Virus record (IMG/VR): IMGVR_UViG_2897352509_000001 | DNA length: 25,804 nucleotides | Reading direction: 5' to 3' (one strand) | DNA from: a virus | Lineage: Duplodnaviria > Heunggongvirae > Uroviricota > Caudoviricetes | Shown here: piece by piece, positions 1-11,560 of the stretch | Position numbering within the stretch: the first letter of the stretch is position 1 | Layout: every line of letters begins with the position of its first letter | Program-made: the position numbers and the translations under genes | Notes under the pieces: model-generated | Told to the model about the DNA's origin: nothing | Seen by the model: only the letters and a program-made list of their open reading frames with translations | The model's database searches: none

Positions 1-912
1 TTACACATCATTAGTACCTTCCTTATTTTTTGACTGGGACAAATTTGGGACCGATGGGTTCAGGATCGAGTCTATTTGCCGTGCGTGTTCGGTAAGGTGA
101 TTAGGTGCAAGGTGAGCATATCGACGAACCATTTCGATAGACTCCCAGCCTCCCATTTCCTGTAACACTGACAACGGGACTCCGGCTTGAACCAGCCAAC
201 TTGCCCAGGTGTGTCTCAAGTCGTGAAATCTGAAATCATCAATACCAGCCCGTCTCAGCGCCGCTTTCCAGGCTGTGTTTGCGTCATACCGCATCTTCCT
301 TACTGTTGGCGCTTTCGTTCCGTCTGGTTTGGTACAGCTTTCCTTGTACACAAATACCCAACGGTGATGATTCCCGATTTGTTTTTTCAATACGCGACAT
401 GCAGTATCATTCAGCGCAACGCCAATTGCGCGGTTTGATTTACTCTCTTCCGGGTTTATCCATGCCACCCGGCGCTGCATATCTATTTGTTGCCATTCAA
501 GGTTGATGATGTTCGAGCGTCTTAAACCTGTTGCCAGTGCAAATTCAACAACAGACTTTAATGGCTCCGGACATTCATCAATCAGCCTTTGTGCTTCATG
601 GGGCTCCAGCCAGCGGATCCGTTTATTCTTTGGTTGAGGCACTTTAAGGAAGGTGCGAATAAGCGGGGAAATTCTTCTCGGCTGACTCAGCTTAGCAGGG
701 CCTTTATAAATGAAAGATGCGTAGCCTTCGTTGCAACGGACGCTGGTTTTGGCGTGTATTCTGGAACAGGTTTCCCTTTTTTTCTGCATGCTTCTGCCCT
801 GAGTTTCCAGTTTTCCTCATGACGCCGGTTCGTCATTTTCTGCATTGCTGAATAAATTTTTGATTCAGTAATGTCTCTTAGTTGCATTCCTGCGAAATGT
901 TGAAGCCAGAAT
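1..912 (-). pseudogene. int: Tyrosine integrase remnant (phage-21/DLP12 IntD-like), N-terminally deleted and frameshifted
   Basis: ORF 1..789 encodes the catalytic C-terminal domain ([15 protein letters not shown] ... VRRYAHL). The upstream integrase segment (IGFWLQHFAGMQLRDITESKIYSAMQKMTNRR) lies in another frame in ORF 687..974, so there is a frameshift near 645-693. The first 20 codons of ORF 687..974 are lambda N DNA read out of frame, so the integrase N-terminal arm-binding part is deleted. Confidence 0.75.
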
Positions 913-977
913 CCGATCTGCTTTCCATTGAGCCTGTTTCTCTGCGCGACGTTCGCGGCGGCGTGTTTGTGCATCCA
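913..977 (-). pseudogene. N: Antiterminator N, N-terminal stub only (MDAQTRRRERRAEKQAQWKA) fused by deletion to the integrase remnant
   Basis: The minus-strand translation in ORF 865..1110 contains the lambda N N-terminus preceded by the lambda N ribosome-binding region; sequence diverges from N after about codon 20. Confidence 0.7.
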
Positions 978-1132
978 TCTGGATTCTCCTGTTAGTTAGC
1001 TTTGGTTGTGTGTGGGAGTCGTAGTCCTGAACGAAAACACCCCGCAATGGCACATTGGCTGCTAATCCGGATTCGCACTTCCGGCCAATGCTTCGTTTCG
1101 TATCACACACACCAAAGCCTTCTGCTTTGAAT

Positions 1133-1168
1133 GCTGCCCTTCTTCAGGGCTTAATTTTTAAGAGCATC
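1133..1168 (-). promoter_or_regulatory. nutL (boxA plus boxB hairpin GCCCTGAAGAAGGGC)
   Basis: Reverse complement of 1133-1168 reads GATGCTCTTAAAAATTAAGCCCTGAAGAAGGGCAGC, which matches lambda nutL boxA/boxB as recalled. Confidence 0.7.
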
Positions 1169-1204
1169 ACCTTCATGGTGGTTAGTGCGTCCTGCTGATG
1201 TGCT

Positions 1205-1268
1205 TAGTATCACCGCTAGTGGTATTTGTGTCAACACCGCCAGAGATAATTTATCACCGCAGATGGTT
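1205..1268 (-). promoter_or_regulatory. OL1-OL2-OL3 operators with leftward PL promoter
   Basis: Three 17-bp lambda-type operator sites: tatcaccgctagtggta (1208-1224), caacaccgccagagata (1232-1248), tatcaccgcagatggtt (1252-1268). A -35 TTGACA and -10 GATACT are present on the minus strand. Confidence 0.8.
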
Positions 1269-1436
1269 ATCTGTATGTTTTTTATATAGATTTATTTTTT
1301 GCAGGGTTGTGTGGCTTGGGAGGTGATCGAGAGATCAGAATTGCGTTGTTTAGTGAGTTGCACCTATTAATTTTAAAATAAATACAATTGGTTATGAACC
1401 GCCCCGGGTTTCCTGGAGAGTGTTTTATCTGTGAAC

Positions 1437-2327
1437 TCAGGCTGCCAGATCATCGTTTCCGATGGAAGCATAATAAGCTTTTTCTGCTTCTGCCGGAGGA
1501 GTATGGCCCAGCCTTCCCAGCAATCGTCGATTGTTATACCAGTCCACCCACGTTAGTGTGGCCAGTTCCACTTCTGCACGGTTTTTCCAGCTCTTACGGT
1601 GTATTACCTCCGCTTTGTAAAGACCATTGATGCTCTCAGCCATCGCGTTGTCATACGAGTCGCCTGTACTCCCTGTTGATGCCAGTAATCCGGCTTCTTT
1701 TAGTCGCTCCGTATAGGCCAGTGACACATACTGAGAGCCTTTATCGCTGTGATGGATGGTGCCAGACGGACGACGGGCCCACAACGCCTGCTCCAGCGCA
1801 TCCAGCACGAATGTCGTTTCCATAGACGATGAGACCCGCCACCCCACGATGTATCCGGCAAACACATCAATGATAAACGCCACATAGACGAAGCCCTGCC
1901 ATGTGCTGACGTAAGTAAAATCAGCCACCCACAGCTGGTCAGGTCGTTCTGCCACGAACTGACGGTTTACGCGGTCGCCTGCGGCAACGGCTTTCCGGCT
2001 GATGGTCGTACGGACCTTTTTACCCCGGAGAACACCGGCAAGTCCCATAACCGCCATGAGACGTGCCACTGTACATCTGGCCACCCTGATTCCTTCCCGT
2101 AACAACTGACGCCAGACTTTACGCACACCGTACACCTGATGATTTTCATCGTATACGCGCTGTATCTCTCTCTTCAGCCAGTCGTCGTGCTGCGCACGGG
2201 CACTGCGTTTATCCGGATGATGTCGCTGTTGCTGACAATGGTAATACGTTGACGGGGCAATATGCAGTTCGCTGCATACCGGTCCGACCCCGTACTGCTC
2301 ACGCAGCTTATCCAGCAGTGGCATCAT
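1437..2327 (-). CDS. IS3-family transposase OrfB (DDE catalytic domain), expressed as OrfAB by -1 frameshifting
   Basis: 296-aa ORF with an integrase-core DDE region (…WVADFTYV…HSDKGSQY…[15 protein letters not shown]…). It overlaps the OrfA end in the -1 frame. Confidence 0.85.
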
Positions 2328-2650
2328 TTTTTCCAGAGGCGGTCGAACTCCGCCTTCGCAAAATAAGCGGAAGCCTGGCGAAGGATATCGTTACTGCGGC
2401 GCAGTTCACGATTTTCACGTTCCAGCTCTTTCAGACGCTGACGTTCAGCGCTGGTGAGCCCACCATCACCGCCCCCGGTATCCCGCTCATGCTGGCGAAC
2501 CCAGACACGCAGAGTCTCCGGCGTACAGCCAATCTTTGGGGCAATGGAACAAATTGCCGCCCACTGTGAGTCATATTCATCCTGACTTTCCAGAACCATA
2601 CGAATCGCCCGCTGACGGACTTCGGGGGAAAAACGAGTATTTTTAGTCAT
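2324..2650 (-). CDS. IS3-family transposase OrfA (helix-turn-helix / leucine-zipper part)
   Basis: 108-aa [18 protein letters not shown]...RLWKK, matching IS629 OrfA as recalled. It ends in an A6 run where a -1 shift enters the OrfB frame. Confidence 0.85.
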
Positions 2651-2704
2651 CCTGTTTACCTCTTTCTCAGGGAGTTTAGTCTCCAGGATTTCCGGGGCGG
2701 TTCA

Positions 2705-3059
2705 TTATGGCTGTTTTTCGAGTTTTTCTTAACTCTTCATGCAGCTCCGTTCTCAGAATATATGATTTTTCGAGTTTGAAATTCTTGCGACCAGGCGTCT
2801 TATTGCCAGGCTCAGGAAGTGGAAGGCGTGTTTGAATGTCGAGTGGTGGACAGTCATAGAAGTAAATTCTATAAAGCTCAAGCGGTTCCCTACGTTCTTG
2901 TGATTGACGTTTTCCATTAAGATGGGAAAGAACCATTGACCATATTACTTTCATTATGCATTGCGCAGTCAGTTCATGCTCGGCGAAGTGTTTACGATGC
3001 GTAGCATGAACACGCTGCATGAAAAAACCCGCATCAATTAAAATTGCTGCTTTCTTCAT
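2705..3059 (-). pseudogene. Accessory gene at the rexAB position of the immunity region, 3' end cut by the IS629 insertion; possible PIN/NYN-like fold
   Basis: ORF 2676..3059 starts MKKAAILIDAGFF... and its last residues read into the IS terminus. Joining the flanks across the IS restores a roughly 150-codon ORF. It is not RexA or RexB. The PIN/NYN assignment rests only on the N-terminal strand and is weak. Confidence 0.5.
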
Positions 3060-3070
3060 AAGAGTCCCAA

Positions 3071-3135
3071 AAAAATAGCCCAGAGCCGTTATGCAGATAT
3101 TAACAATTGTCTGCGAACGGGGCTGGGCTTGGTTT
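3071..3135 (-). terminator. Candidate intrinsic terminator downstream of cI (imperfect hairpin followed by a T-run on the minus strand)
   Basis: Inverted repeat CCGTTATGCAGA...TCTGCGAACGG with flanking CCCAG/CTGGG; plus-strand A7 at 3071-3077 gives a U-run after the hairpin on the minus strand. Confidence 0.35.
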
Positions 3136-3186
3136 AATTAATCTATGCCAAGTTGACTGTGCCGTCAACATAAAACTTACTTCCTA

Positions 3187-3903
<717 letters not shown>

Positions 3904-3910
3904 TTAAATC

Positions 3911-3974
3911 TATCACCGCAAGGGATAAATATCTAACACCGCGCGTGTTGACTGCTTTACCTCTGGCGGTGATA
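3911..3974. promoter_or_regulatory. OR3-OR2-OR1 operators with divergent PRM and PR promoters
   Basis: tatcaccgcaagggata (3911-3927), taacaccgcgcgtgttg (3934-3950), tacctctggcggtgata (3958-3974). PR -35 TTGACT and -10 GATAAT lie upstream of cro. Confidence 0.9.
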
Positions 3975-3991
3975 ATGGTTGCATGTACTAA

Positions 3992-4201
<210 letters not shown>

Positions 4202-4209
4202 ATAACCCC

Positions 4210-4241
4210 GCTCTTACACATTCCAGCCCTGAAAAAGGGCA
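4210..4241 (+). promoter_or_regulatory. nutR (boxA CGCTCTTAC plus boxB hairpin AGCCCTGAAAAAGGGCA)
   Basis: Exact lambda nutR elements as recalled, between cro and cII. Confidence 0.8.
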
Positions 4242-4319
4242 TCCAATTAAACCACACCTATGGTGTATGCATTTATTTGCATACATTCAATCAATTGTTA
4301 TCTAAGGAAATACTTACAT

Positions 4320-4613
4320 ATGGTTCGTGCAAACAAACGCAACGAGGCTCTACGAATCGAGAGTGCGTTGCTTAACAAAATCGCAATGCTTGGAACTGAG
4401 AAGACAGCGGAAGCTGTGGGAGTTGATAAGTCGCAGATCAGCAGGTGGAAGAGAGACTGGATTCCAAAGTTCTCAATGCTGCTTGCTGTTCTTGAATGGG
4501 GGGTCGTTGACGACGACATGGCTCGATTGGCGCGACAAGTTGCTGCGATTCTCACCAATAAAAAACGCCCGGCGGCAACCGAGCGTTCTGAACAAATCCA
4601 GATGGAGTTCTGA
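4320..4613 (+). CDS. cII: CII transcriptional activator
   Basis: 97-aa ORF from ATG 4320: MVRANKRNEALRIESALLNK...EQIQMEF, lambda CII as recalled. The listed ORF 4260..4613 is an upstream extension. Confidence 0.9.
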   Translation: MVRANKRNEALRIESALLNKIAMLGTEKTAEAVGVDKSQISRWKRDWIPKFSMLLAVLEWGVVDDDMARLARQVAAILTNKKRPAATERSEQIQMEF

Positions 4614-4645
4614 GGTCATTACTGGATCTATCAACAGGAGTCATT

Positions 4646-5568
4646 ATGACAAATACAGCAAAAATACTCAACTTCGGCAGAGGTAACTTTGCCGGACAGG
4701 AGCGTAATGTGGCAGATCTCGATGATGGTTACGCCAGACTATCAAATATGCTGCTTGAGGCTTATTCGGGCGCAGATCTGACCAAGCGACAGTTTAAAGT
4801 GCTGCTTGCCATTCTGCGTAAAACCTATGGGTGGAATAAACCAATGGACAGAATCACCGATTCTCAACTTAGCGAGATTACAAAGTTACCTGTCAAACGG
4901 TGCAATGAAGCCAAGTTAGAACTCGTCAGAATGAATATTATCAAGCAGCAAGGCGGCATGTTTGGACCAAATAAAAACATCTCAGAATGGTGTATCCCTC
5001 AAAACGAGGGAAAATCCCCTAAAACGAGGGATAAAACATCCCTCAAATTGGGGGATTGCTATCCCTCAAATTGGGGGATTGCTATCCCTCAAAACAGGGG
5101 GACACAAAAGACACTATTACAAAAGAAAAAAGAAAAGATTATTCGTCCGAGAATTCTGGCGAATCCTCTGACCAGCCAGAAAACGATCTTTCTGTGGTTA
5201 AACCGGATGCTGCAATTCAGAGCGGCAGCAAGTGGGGAACAGCAGAAGACCTGACCGCCGCAGAGTGGATGTTTGACATGGTGAAGACCATCGCGCCATC
5301 AGCCAGAAAACCGAATTTTGCTGGGTGGGCTAACGATATCCGCCTGATGCGTGAACGTGACGGACGTAACCACCGCGATATGTGTGTGCTTTTCCGCTGG
5401 GCCTGCCAGGACAACTTCTGGTCCGGTAACGTGCTGAGTCCGGCCAAACTCCGCGACAAGTGGACCCAGCTCGAAATCAACCGTAACAAGCAACAGGCAG
5501 GCGTGACAGCCAGCAAACCAAAACTCGACCTGACAAACACTGACTGGATTTACGGGGTGGATTTATGA
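4646..5568 (+). pseudogene. O: Replication initiator O, frameshifted by a 23-bp duplication of one ori iteron
   Basis: The N-terminal part (ORF 4646..5254) and the C-terminal part (ORF 5056..5568, ...WIYGVDL) are in different frames. The switch falls exactly where the 23-bp unit atccctcaaattgggggattgct occurs twice in tandem (5038-5060 and 5061-5083). The total span is 23 bp longer than the 900-bp lambda O as recalled. Confidence 0.75.
4994..5100 (+). repeat. Lambda-type replication origin iterons, five copies instead of the four recalled for lambda, followed by an AT-rich stretch
   Basis: Direct repeats of ATCCCTCAAAAC/ATTG-GGGG type at 4994, 5014, 5038, 5061 and 5084; the third and fourth are identical 23-bp units. 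Confidence 0.8.
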
Positions 5569-5876
5569 AAAACATCGCCGCACAGATGGTTAACTTTGAC
5601 CGTGAGCAGATGCGTCGGATCGCCAACATCGATAACCAGGACATGACGATATCGGTCTGGGTCTTTCCTGATACTGATATTTCAGATGTATCGCGTGAGT
5701 TAATTGCGGCAATTAAACAGGGGTATCTAACAGTAAAAGCCGCCGGGGTATGGGCGGGGGGCATTGAAACACCTTCGGTGGAAACTCCATCGGAAGGCTC
5801 TAAATTTTTTGGTTTTGATATGGATAACGAATTCATCAGTGGTTTTGATGTAGGGGCATGGGGAGTATTACTCTGA
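5565..5876 (+). CDS. Chimeric ORF: first 21 codons of replication protein P fused by deletion to the C-terminal end of a tail/baseplate protein
   Basis: [21 protein letters not shown] is the lambda P N-terminus; the sequence diverges at about 5628 into unrelated tail-module coding sequence. Its stop overlaps the next start (TGATG). Confidence 0.6.
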
Positions 5877-6670
5877 TGGCGAAAAATGACTTTAAAGCGT
5901 TTGCAACTGATCGAAATGCCAATGTTATGTCGCAGGAGGAATGGGAAGCGTTGCCTGCGCTTATATCCGGATTTACAGCAGGGAAAGCATCCAGTGCGCA
6001 AGTCAATAAGGTTATTCGGCAGGCCAGCTTTATTGCTGCAGCTCTGGCCCAGTTTGTAAGTGATAAAACGCAACGGGATGTGCTTGATAATGGTGATCTG
6101 CCCGGTTGGCACGACCAGCTGCTTACCGCGCTTCGTGCGCTGCTGTTAAGCCGCAAGAATCCGTTTGGCGATATCAAATCGGATGGCACGGTGAAAACGG
6201 CTCTCGAAAACCTTGGTTTGGGAGAAGGTGCTCCAGCTATTGGCGTTCCGTTCTTCTGGCCGTCCGCTGCAATGCCAAATACTGTAATCGACAGCTGGTC
6301 CTGTATGGTGTTTTTGAAGTTCAACGGCGCGAAATTCTCTGCCACTGATTATCCTGTGCTGGCGAAAGTGTTTCCTTCGCTGGTATTACCTGAAGCCCGC
6401 GGTGATTTCATTCGTATCTGGGATGACGGGCGAGGTGCAGACGGTGGTCGCGAATTATTAAGCTGGCAGGCAGCTACAAACTTTTCTCAGTTTGCCGGGA
6501 ATATAGGCGAAGGTGCGGGACACGCAATTAACTTTCATGATGGCATCGCCGGAAATCAGCCAGGATTTTCACGATTTAATTTCACCAGTAACTCTGTGGG
6601 TGATGGTGTGAATTTTGTTGCAGTCAGACCGCGAAATATTGCATTTAACTTTCTGGTGAGGGCTAAATAA
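5858..6670 (+). CDS. stf: Side tail fibre protein (Mu S / P2 H / e14 StfE-like); the C-terminal part lies inside the invertible segment
   Basis: 270-aa ORF with tail-fibre hallmarks (...[28 protein letters not shown]...). The start may instead be the ATG at 5876, which is coupled to the upstream stop. The Pin crossover site sits inside the ORF at 6204-6226. Confidence 0.75.
6204..6226. repeat. Left recombination site of the Pin invertible segment (gix/pix-like)
   Basis: tcgaaaaccttggtttgggagaa matches the reverse complement of 8059-8084 at 20 of 23 positions, so the two form inverted repeats flanking a ~1.85 kb segment. Confidence 0.7.
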
Positions 6671-7263
6671 TGAAACCTGTTTTTGATGAAAATGGGCTGG
6701 CTACAGTGCCGGGCGATATGCGTTGTTTTTATTATGATGCTGAAACATCTGAGTATACGGGCTGGTCTGATGAATATATTAATACTGGCGTAAGTATGCC
6801 CGCCTGTTCCACTGGTATTGACCCTGGCGAAAACATTCCGGGAAGAGTGGCAGTATTTACAGGTAAGGGATGGAGCCATGAAGAAGACCATCGCAATGAG
6901 ACTGTTTACTCAATCGAAAATGGCGCAGCTGTTACAGTGGATTATATCGGTGCCATCAAAGACGGTTATGTCACGATTTCACCGTTAACGCCATACGATA
7001 AATGGGATGGTGAAAAATGGGTGACAGATACTGAGGCACAACACGGTGCCGCAGTAGAAGCGGCAGAAGCACAGCGCCAGTCACTGATTGATGCAGCAAT
7101 GGCTTCCATCAGTCTGATTCAACTGAAATTGCAGGCCGGACGTAAACTGACGCAGGCAGAAACAACCAGACTTAACGCTGTGCTGGATTACATTGACGCG
7201 GTGACGGCAACAGATACCAGCACCGCGCCGGATGTCATCTGGCCTGAACTGCCGGAGGCGTAG
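6670..7263 (+). CDS. tfa: Tail fibre assembly protein (Tfa / Mu U-like)
   Basis: 197-aa ORF whose start overlaps the stf stop (TAATG). Shares the conserved Tfa C-terminal motif (...LDYIDA...TSTAPDVIWPELPEA) with the inverted copy at 7235-7687. Confidence 0.8.
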   Translation: MKPVFDENGLATVPGDMRCFYYDAETSEYTGWSDEYINTGVSMPACSTGIDPGENIPGRVAVFTGKGWSHEEDHRNETVYSIENGAAVTVDYIGAIKDGYVTISPLTPYDKWDGEKWVTDTEAQHGAAVEAAEAQRQSLIDAAMASISLIQLKLQAGRKLTQAETTRLNAVLDYIDAVTATDTSTAPDVIWPELPEA

Positions 7264-7687
7264 GCCATTCAATATCTGGCGCACTGGAGGTATCAACCAG
7301 TTCCAGTGCGTCCAGATAATCCAGCCACAAATTATATTGCGCCAGTTCCTCACCTTTCAGACGACCAATAGCGGCTTTACCGGGCCATTGCTTACTGTTC
7401 ATGTATTCGTTGGCCTGGTTAATTAGTAGCTGTCTTTCTGATTCAGTAATTTCAATAAGCTCTTCATGCGTGGGTGGAGGAATATCTGCCCACGCAGGCA
7501 GCCCATCATCTCCGGCAATACGGATTTTTCCTTGTGGCGGTTCAGCCATAAACTCACTGATAATATTTTGATTTACTTCCTTAGCGTCTGATAAATCCCA
7601 TCCCTCTGATTTATATTTATCAATCATATCCACAGGGAAAAAAGCATTATGCCTTGCGCTATAAACATATTCGTCCATATAAATCAC
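7235..7687 (-). CDS. Alternative tail fibre assembly protein (Tfa') in inverted orientation
   Basis: 150-aa ORF ending ...LDYLDALELVDTSSAPDIEWPTPPAVQAR, paralogous to the Tfa C-terminus; convergent with tfa as in Mu G, P1 C and e14 P segments. Confidence 0.75.
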   Translation of the reverse strand: MIYMDEYVYSARHNAFFPVDMIDKYKSEGWDLSDAKEVNQNIISEFMAEPPQGKIRIAGDDGLPAWADIPPPTHEELIEITESERQLLINQANEYMNSKQWPGKAAIGRLKGEELAQYNLWLDYLDALELVDTSSAPDIEWPTPPAVQAR

Positions 7688-7698
7688 CCTGAATAAAA

Positions 7699-8058
7699 TT
7701 ACTCACCAACAGCCCACCAACTGTAATTCATCGATACCGTGTCGCTGGTTGATGACGTTCTGTAAGCAGAATTAAAGCCGGTTAACGTTGGGCCTTCTGC
7801 AGTCATCACGAACCCTCGCCCAGCGCCTAAAGGCGCACCGCCATCACCAGAATGAGTAAGCATGGCGCAGTCCGCTTTTTTGGGGAAAGGGATGCTGAAT
7901 GTAATTCTCATTGTTTGCGTCGATAATGTCGGCGTAACCGCACCACGACCATATTGCAGGATTTTCCCGTTGGGTAATTTCATCCATCCATCACCACTGG
8001 CAAAAGAGGCCATGTCCGGTATCTGATTTTCCCCTGTCCCCACATCCCGTTTTGCCGC
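7699..8058 (-). CDS. Alternative tail fibre variable C-terminal segment (Sv'), promoterless in this orientation
   Basis: Minus-strand ORF 7699..8112 encodes a tail-fibre tip-like sequence with no credible start. It would fuse to the constant stf part after inversion. The segment boundary is set at the right recombination site. Confidence 0.6.
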   Translation of the reverse strand, partial: AAKRDVGTGENQIPDMASFASGDGWMKLPNGKILQYGRGAVTPTLSTQTMRITFSIPFPKKADCAMLTHSGDGGAPLGAGRGFVMTAEGPTLTGFNSAYRTSSTSDTVSMNYSWWAVGE

Positions 8059-8084
8059 TTCTCCCAAACCAACGTTTATGAAAA
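8059..8084. repeat. Right recombination site of the Pin invertible segment
   Basis: ttctcccaaaccaacgtttatgaaaa, inverted relative to 6204-6226, lying immediately upstream of pin. Confidence 0.7.
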
Positions 8085-8138
8085 TGCAGAAATAACGAGC
8101 AAATGGCATCATTCCTGCTTTTGTCAGGGGGATCTACC

Positions 8139-11092: not shown

Positions 11093-11560
11093 ATTGTTCT
11101 TGCCCCCTTATTTCCAGACAGGGGGGGTATCTTAAGTTAACGTTACCCGCTGACGTCGATATTCTCGCGGAGAGCGATAACCCAACGCACTGTGCGGATG
11201 GTTTTCATTGTAATGTTCGATCGCCACTGCAAGATTATGCAATGCCGTTCTTACATTCGGTTTCGGCATGAACGCGATGTAGTCTTCCTTCATCGTTTTC
11301 ACGAACCTTTCTGCAATTCCATTACTCTGAGGACTGCTGATTGCCGTTGTGCAGGGCTCCAGATTCAACTCTCTGGCGAACTGCCGTGTTTCATGCGCTC
11401 TATACGCTGAACCGTTATCTGTCAGCCACTGGATGGACTGTTCCGGTACTTTATCGCCAAAGCGTTTTTCTATCGCTCCTAACATGACATCCTGCACTGT
11501 CGCTTTATCGTAACCTCCCGTGCTTGCGGCCCAGTCTATGGCTTCACGATCGCAACAGGC
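11093..11560 (-). mobile_element. IS2-family (IS3 superfamily) remnant: outer end plus the 3' third of the transposase gene
   Basis: The terminus ttgcccccttatttccagaca resembles the IS2 end. The minus-strand translation matches the IS2 InsD C-terminus (...TVQDVMLGA...WLTDNGS.YRA.ETRQFAR...[12 protein letters not shown]) and extends back to CCDREA with no start codon. Homology breaks at about 11560. Confidence 0.75.
11132..11497 (-). pseudogene. Truncated IS2-like transposase OrfB (C-terminal part)
   Basis: 121-aa [51 protein letters not shown]..., equivalent to the last ~125 residues of InsD; the upstream part is interrupted by stops. Confidence 0.75.

Follow-up and report, generated by a model that had tools for sequence, protein, structure and literature searches.

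The window analysed here is the whole 25,804-nucleotide (nt) stretch of IMG/VR virus record IMGVR_UViG_2897352509_000001. From its gene content and sequence matches it is assigned to the cryptic lambda-like prophage Sp1 of Escherichia coli O157:H7, integrated at thrW, and the subject of this report is a tandem 23-bp repeat within the replication initiator gene O of that element. The overall explanation, considered very probable, is that Sp1 is a remnant in which a slippage event duplicated iteron 3 of a lambda-type replication origin and left O null, with P truncated, int a pseudogene and the repeat itself unstable on an evolutionary scale. The duplication is a real, ordinary and essentially known pseudogenising lesion, as O and P are listed as pseudogenes in reference annotation and the defective replication of Sp1 has been described in the literature on the prophages of strain Sakai (PMC2669165).

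An earlier note on this DNA, made by reading its letters, had claimed a 23-bp unit occurring twice in tandem and giving five iterons, and both claims were borne out. The 23-mer ATCCCTCAAATTGGGGGATTGCT at positions 5038-5060 was found by direct string comparison to be followed by an identical second copy at 5061-5083. Tandem Repeats Finder called the repeat at 5038-5093 with a period of 23, 2.4 copies and 100% matches, the extra 0.4 of a copy arising because iteron 4 opens with the first 10 nt of the repeat unit, ATCCCTCAAA. Even with three mismatches permitted, the 23-mer count in the window remained two (0.00 expected from 100 shuffles). An iteron pattern search returned exactly five sites, starting at 4994, 5014, 5038, 5061 and 5084 (0.00 expected). 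All lie on the plus strand. They are iteron 1 (ATCCCTCAAAACGAGGGA, 4994-5011, matching the lambda annotation at 39034-39051), iteron 2 (ATCCCCTAAAACGAGGGA, 5014-5031, also supported by the lambda annotation and by alignment), iteron 3 (5038-5055), which together with the spacer TTGCT makes up the first 23-bp unit, a duplicated iteron 3 (5061-5078), which with its own spacer makes up the second unit, and iteron 4 (ATCCCTCAAAACAGGGGGA, 5084-5102), whose first 10 nt are those of the duplicated unit.

The same note had stated that the lambda origin lies inside O and has four iterons, which the annotation of the lambda record confirmed. The possibility that lambda itself has a five-iteron arrangement was rejected, as that record annotates four and alignment showed one copy of the 23-mer. 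Four of the five iterons of the window are identical to lambda ITN1-4, and the extra one was shown by alignment to be an exact copy of iteron 3 with its 5-bp spacer. Alignment, together with a synthetic one-copy query, further identified this second unit as missing from lambda, phage 21, BP-4795 and 13 O157:H7 genomes.

The remaining anatomy is that of a lambda-type origin. The iterons (4994-5102) lie inside the O frames (4646-5568) and form an array of 18-19-bp elements with hyphenated dyad symmetry, five in number as against the four of lambda. To the right of the last iteron is an A+T-rich tract (5103-5143, plus strand) in which alignment detected no difference from lambda. The first difference in this part of O is at lambda position 39165, corresponding to window position 5148, the limits of lambda ori being 39034-39160 (PMC3349717). 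Two components usual for such an origin are absent, namely an intact O initiator, whose frame shifts after residue 141 with the loss of its C-terminal half, and the helicase loader P beside O, of which codons 1-21 remain, fused to unrelated sequence.

Since 23 bp is not a multiple of three, the duplication shifts the frame of O. The predicted split into two frames was confirmed both by the list of open reading frames (ORFs) and by repair of the repeat. An N-terminal frame (4646-5254, plus strand) encodes 202 amino acids (aa), and a C-terminal frame (5056-5568, plus strand), at -1 relative to the first, ends at the native O stop codon, which overlaps the start of P (ATGA). Removal of one repeat copy (joining 4646-5060 to 5084-5568) restored an O gene of 900 nt and 299 codons, the product of which is identical at 299 of 299 residues to the O proteins of lambda and phage 21. 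The repaired gene differs from that of lambda at 15 nt, one upstream of the repeat and 14 downstream. All of these differences are synonymous, which points to purifying selection on O throughout its divergence from lambda. Apart from the duplication, O has acquired no other lesion, although a lack of further decay is to be expected anyway in a clone as young as O157:H7. O is annotated as a pseudogene in Sakai (ECs_0277), and carries the PGAP label "frameshifted" in EDL933, TW14359, SS17 and others.

Comparison with the repaired frame showed that residues 1-141 of the 202-aa product are native and identical to lambda O and that these are followed by 61 out-of-frame residues. The Pfam domain Phage_rep_O (PF04492) was found at residues 22-115 (E 1.9e-36; 124.9 bits, with a curated cut-off of 28.7 bits) and is complete and wholly upstream of the frameshift. 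Domain limits were taken from Pfam and from statements in the literature, according to which origin binding belongs to the N-terminal part, P binding to the C-terminal part, and a flexible linker lies between them (PMC6022878). The 202-aa product should thus still recognise iterons but not recruit P and DnaB. A sequence search found no solved structures of O, and an AlphaFold2 prediction for the 202-aa product, made with no alignment, gave an unusable model (mean predicted local distance difference test score, pLDDT, of 39.8).

It could be argued that O is rescued at the level of expression, by a ribosomal or transcriptional slip of -1 in an A-rich tract that rejoins the frames and yields O with an altered linker. 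The C-terminal frame does run at -1 (its codons start at 1 mod 3, those of the N-terminal frame at 2 mod 3), and the overlap of the two (5056-5254) holds the run AAG AAA AAA GAA at 5123-5134. The linker of O also has some tolerance, as it accepts a 13-aa insertion in Shiga toxin (Stx) phages (PMC7466680), while in-frame deletions of 12 and 15 bp in the A+T-rich part leave O able to complement, unlike removal of iteron 4 (PMC6022878). However, the A-run is not an in-phase A_AAA_AAG heptamer, six adenines are short for transcriptional slippage, no stimulatory structure was noted (though none was searched for), and no replication of Sp1 occurs in Sakai (PMC2669165). Such recoding is considered exceedingly unlikely.

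The Sp1 arrangement (O, truncated P and tail fibre) was found in 204 of 5426 complete E. coli genomes, all of them O157-type. Copy number was scored by searching the complete genomes with synthetic one-copy and three-copy queries. Thirteen of the 204 matched the one-copy query at 100% or 99.7%, with the rest at 98.1%, the value expected for a 23-bp gap. By subtraction, approximately 191 genomes, including Sakai and EDL933, have two copies. The annotation of the 13 one-copy strains gives O as an intact 900-nt "replication protein". No three-copy allele was found among the 5426 genomes, as no match to the synthetic query was better than 98.1%, and ongoing expansion, of which such an allele would have been a sign, was rejected.

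These figures bear on the alternative, raised in the earlier note, that the repeat is a collapse or expansion created by sequencing or assembly. The region is a cluster of near-identical repeats, in which such errors can arise, and 13 assemblies have one copy, two of which (JEONG-1266 and Rafaela_II) have many frameshifted neighbouring genes, suggesting indel-prone assemblies. However, the two-copy stretch of the window from 4900 to 6100 matched at 100% every full-length complete genome among the matches listed, and so did the stretch from 4646 to 5640. The approximately 191 complete genomes with two copies were assembled independently, in many laboratories and with a range of technologies, and six IMG/VR contigs of other O157 assemblies have two copies as well. 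Moreover, the 46-bp array is far below any read length. An artefact is therefore very unlikely for this record and that alternative was rejected, while a few of the 13 one-copy strains may reflect assembly errors, given the frameshifted neighbours in two of them.

The comparison with lambda and lambdoid prophage O genes that the note had suggested thus gave one copy in lambda and phage 21, two in most Sp1 elements and one in 13 strains. To place these states, nearby markers were scored over approximately 5 kb in 23 strains, all 13 one-copy strains and nine two-copy strains having been fetched. With the AC allele at promoter pR and no insertion sequence (IS), two copies were found in Sakai, EDL933 and ECP19-198 and one copy in ECP19-798, Al Ain and UTME-4. 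With an IS at a site termed B, strains Z1813 and 155 have two copies and Z1812 has one. With the GC allele at pR and an IS at a site termed A, two copies were found in the window, TW14359, F7386 and SS17, and one copy in SS52, 3-5-1 and 08-3918. As both copy states occur on several local haplotypes, copy number has changed repeatedly, and at least three times under any scenario. An ancestral duplication with recurrent precise loss is favoured, since contraction of a perfect repeat is mechanistically far easier than repeated identical duplication and since two-copy genomes are the large majority.

A side observation concerns the pR allele itself. It is defined by two bases (3954-3955) between OR2 and OR1, directly following the -35 hexamer of pR, TTGACT. 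Lambda has AT here, Sakai and EDL933 have AC, the window and TW14359 have GC, and strain 272 has GT, so that a very clonal lineage shows three alleles at neighbouring sites.

The repeat shares one attribute with slippage-driven phase-variable loci, namely a copy number that varies between closely related strains and thereby changes the frame that is read, the one-copy allele being in frame. It might accordingly be a contingency locus, a reversible slippage switch turning O on or off, with each state favoured by its setting. Both alleles occur on each major local haplotype (pR AC or GC; IS absent, at site A or at site B), as illustrated by Z1812 with one copy and Z1813 and strain 155 with two, all with the same IS insertion, and O, which has no other lesion, encodes exactly lambda O. 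Against this, only two states exist, with the three-copy allele in 0 of 5426 genomes, and two copies of a 23-mer are atypical for a high-frequency switch. O has no obvious use when P is absent, the scatter of alleles could be due to repeated neutral contraction or to a small number of assembly errors, and the absence of further decay in O has the alternative explanation of a young clone. A switch is considered improbable.

Outside Sp1, the duplication was found in none of 50,697 deposited phage genomes, the best matches spanning 128 bases of a 151-base query. The exact 46-mer was present in seven IMG/VR contigs, six of which are Sp1 itself from other O157 assemblies. The seventh (UViG_2541047164_000016, positions 11347-13112; contig L007) has O-P-ren genes like those of Sp15, of Stx1-phage type, with a central patch of Sp1, including the duplication, in place of its ori segment, and a 1-nt insertion near the start of O. 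This arrangement was found in none of the complete genomes (best match 97.8%). Either chimerism in a draft assembly or a rare event of gene conversion between co-resident prophages could account for it, and as a mosaic with an Sp1 patch it was given no weight as an independent occurrence of the duplication.

The assignment of the window to Sp1 is supported by 100% identity of its O-P region (4646-5640) to the locus in many complete O157:H7 genomes, including Sakai, EDL933, TW14359 and EC4115. The Sakai record describes this locus as "prophage Sp1, lambda-like phage", a 10.6-kb remnant adjoining the tRNA-Thr gene thrW, and lists cI, cro and cII as intact, the integrase gene, O (ECs_0277) and P (ECs_0279) as pseudogenes, and tail-fibre genes together with a Pin invertase. 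The window differs from Sakai by an IS629/IS1203 element at 1393-2707, as in TW14359, and from 2708 to 6100 it is identical to TW14359, F7386 and SS17. The cI repressor gene (3187-3900, minus strand) is intact, encodes 237 aa and differs from that of lambda at 20 of 714 bases. The pR operon leading into O (4001-4613, plus strand) comprises cro (4001-4201, identical to lambda), nutR/tR1 and cII (4320-4613). The oop RNA sequence (4559-4635, minus strand) is 100% identical to that of lambda, as is the pO region up to 4680. A scan of positions 2700-6200 with Rfam gave no match at E <= 0.01. Sp1 probably still confers lambda-type immunity and is probably SOS-inducible.

The truncated P (5565-5876, plus strand) follows lambda for codons 1-21, up to 5628. 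From there the reading frame continues into the 3' part of a tail baseplate gene, which puts the deletion junction at 5628/5629, and the alignment with the mosaic contig L007 also stops at 5628. The fusion ORF gave a weak match to DUF2612 (E 6e-4, below cut-off) and is annotated in Sakai as a pseudogene (ECs_0279). As an observation in its own right, this ORF marks the deletion, which extended from P through the tail genes. Co-expression of P fragments consisting of the first 36 or 63 codons has been reported to block O complementation (PMC6022878).

The earlier note had also proposed that the duplication inactivates O, consistent with a replication-dead prophage. The frameshift of O and the dead prophage both stand, but the frameshift is not the cause of replication death, since Sp1 has lost all of P after codon 21 along with the greater part of the phage genome, leaving the replication module dead whatever the state of O. 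With int a pseudogene in addition, Sp1 can neither replicate nor excise. In Sakai, Sp1 was scored as defective in replication, with no circularisation, replication or packaging (Asadulghani et al. 2009; PMC2669165), and it was not amplified after mitomycin C, yet its remaining early genes were clearly induced (PMC2669165). It is therefore likely that the SOS response leads to production of the truncated O.

As to how the duplication arose, the length duplicated equals exactly the spacing from the start of iteron 3 to that of iteron 4, and both starts share the 10 nt ATCCCTCAAA. The iteron region as a single strand folds at -16.5 kcal/mol (z = -4.3 against shuffled controls), with each iteron a hyphenated palindrome, and such strong folding would favour slippage. 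The origin by slippage proposed in the earlier note fits this 10-nt direct repeat, with which both copies and iteron 4 begin, the mechanism itself being one that we infer. Slipped-strand misalignment, or unequal exchange, between the 10-nt repeats of iterons 3 and 4 would have duplicated the 23 bp between them, adding a fifth O-binding site and 23 nt of coding sequence. Translation would then leave the O frame after residue 141 and terminate at 5254, yielding a product that would keep the N-terminal origin-binding domain, lack the C-terminal P-recruiting part and be null for initiation. P was destroyed separately by the deletion after codon 21, and with int a pseudogene neither replication nor excision is possible. 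On an evolutionary scale the repeat is unstable, being present in one or two copies on several different local haplotypes.

The persistence of the O defect may be due to selection against initiation in situ. A de-repressible lambda fragment that cannot excise kills its host when its origin fires in place, a process termed replicative killing, and the cells that survive have O, P or the origin altered by a deletion or an insertion (PMC6022878). The lesion in the O of Sp1 is of the type recovered in such selections. With an int pseudogene and an SOS-responsive repressor, Sp1 is a trapped, inducible fragment of this kind. Six other Sakai prophages encode lambda-type helicase loaders (PMC2669165), and the O of Sp15 differs from that of Sp1 by two substitutions and a 13-residue insert only, so that a supply of P in trans is conceivable.

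Several points weigh against this account. Slippage is read from the structure of the repeat, and the loss of function of O from the predicted properties of a truncated protein, and a -1 shift anywhere in 5056-5254 would be enough to bring the two frames together again. Replicative killing is an uncertain source of selection, as P is also missing and O would matter only if the other lambda-type prophages of O157:H7 supply P. Finally, for the direction of change within O157:H7 (from four to five iterons, or five to four), the haplotype table has too few sites, and the restriction of Sp1 to O157-type genomes leaves no outgroup to polarise it. Nothing contradicts the anatomy described.

A further alternative is that the remnant with its five iterons now serves the host by excluding phages that replicate in the manner of lambda, its iterons and oop serving as a decoy and its SOS-induced 202-aa O fragment acting as a dominant negative that occupies incoming origins. 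The oop-pO-iteron segment is identical to lambda, and plasmid-borne oop and iterons do block lambda-type replication, an effect that needs iterons 3-4 and oop (PMC3349717). The duplicated iteron belongs to this required pair. Lambda is arrested by ectopic copies of ori (PMC4488673), and induced cryptic lambda fragments with an inactivated P give nonimmune exclusion of rep-lambda phages. In Sp1 the early genes are induced by mitomycin C (PMC2669165) and the O domain upstream of the frameshift is intact. The published effects, however, were obtained with plasmids in many copies or with fragments freed from repression, whereas Sp1 is present once and is normally kept silent by its own cI. Thirteen strains do without the extra copy, and the stability and DNA binding of the out-of-frame product are hypothetical, as is any such effect in Sp1. 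Exclusion is regarded as unlikely.

It is also possible, though doubtful, that Sp1 is a domesticated lambda remnant containing a recurrently slipping switch. In its two-copy state, the SOS-made O fragment lacking the P-binding half and the oop-iteron decoy would damp or exclude the replication of lambda-type phages, including co-resident Stx prophages with the same iterons, while in its one-copy state authentic lambda O would be made, able to work with their P. Taken together, the exclusion, switch and recoding readings are given roughly one chance in eight. Iteron-3 slippage in a dead remnant remains the preferred reading.

Some further observations concern other parts of the element. The int pseudogene has single-base differences at 373 and 526 and a 44-nt block at 647-690 that set it apart from all 5426 complete E. 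coli genomes (best match 98.2%). A small inversion was considered for this block and rejected; it could stem from a paralogous integrase by gene conversion, or the source record could be in error. The IS629/IS1203 element at 1393-2707 separates the int pseudogene from the gene that follows, an arrangement shared with TW14359 and SS52. The UK strains 155, Z1812 and Z1813 have an IS at another site and in the opposite orientation, and Sakai and EDL933 have none. A small gene beside cI (2676-3059; homologues in L018, L020 and L021) has a start that shifts in 3-nt steps from strain to strain, giving lengths of 390, 387 and 384 nt. It is labelled as frameshifted in some strains and is PIN-domain-containing according to one annotation. 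At approximately 5858-8100, tail-fibre and tail-fibre-assembly genes stand in opposed pairs beside the pinE invertase, forming an invertible host-range segment. This segment is present in both orientations among O157:H7 genomes, with its annotation varying between "tail fiber protein" and "gp53-like".

In the literature searched, no description was found of a duplication of iteron 3, of the one-/two-copy polymorphism, of five iterons in lambdoid phages or of iterons in CP-933H. What appears to be new is the presence of one copy and an intact O in 13 of the 204 genomes, the repeated change in copy number and the identity of the repaired protein to lambda O. The exact molecular cause of the Sp1 O pseudogene can now be given as a duplication of iteron 3 between 10-nt microhomologies. 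Sp1 also provides a natural five-iteron lambda origin with an isogenic four-iteron counterpart, which would be useful for studies of O-some geometry. The one-/two-copy polymorphism is a simple marker that can be scored by polymerase chain reaction, but it is homoplastic in O157:H7 and hence not suited to naive typing. Should it be true that the remnant hinders Stx phages sharing its iterons, this would bear on interactions between prophages and on the induction of toxin phages in O157:H7. As it stands, the duplication is one more inactivating lesion of a well-studied cryptic prophage and changes little.

Comparison with known systems places Sp1 close to lambda and phage 21. As in these phages, its origin lies inside O and iterons 1-4 have the same sequence. 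Alignment of the window with both showed a clean 23-bp insertion and an otherwise unchanged iteron block, and relative to lambda no difference was found in the A+T-rich tract, with the oop RNA and pO region being identical. Unlike lambda, Sp1 has P cut at codon 21, and an additional 23 bp separates its iterons 1-3 from iteron 4 and the A+T-rich tract.

The NIE/IP cryptic fragments and oop-ori plasmids, which exclude rep-lambda phages, have the same gene content as Sp1, namely cI-cro-cII-oop-O with iterons and an inactive P, and Sp1 has, unchanged, the oop and iteron 3-4 sequences on which the plasmid phenotype depends (PMC3349717). Their phenotypes were measured on multicopy plasmids or thermally de-repressed engineered prophages. 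The ori-minus and RK-minus (ilr) mutants of lambda prophage have small deletions or insertions in the iterons or the O region that abolish initiation (PMC6022878). They were recovered because initiation in situ from a trapped prophage kills, and Sp1 is likewise non-excisable and SOS-inducible. The mutants described are deletions of iterons or of the A+T tract (r93, r96, r98, r99) and insertions or deletions in O (PMC6022878), whereas Sp1 has a duplication of iteron 3. Sp1 further differs from these trapped lambda mutants in that P is gone too, so that the same selective logic needs P in trans.

Six-iteron variants of the lambda origin are found in the Stx phages 933W, P27, BP-4795 and Sakai Sp15, which also arose by tandem duplication inside O. 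There, iterons 1-2 were duplicated as a 39-bp segment on the far side of the array, in frame and with a gain of 13 residues (PMC7466680), and the extra iterons are required for replication (PMC7466680). This 39-bp in-frame duplication is present in BP-4795 and Sp15 and absent from the window. In contrast to that of the Stx phages, the duplication of Sp1 is of 23 bp, involves iteron 3, is internal to the array, shifts the reading frame and is found only in a dead remnant.

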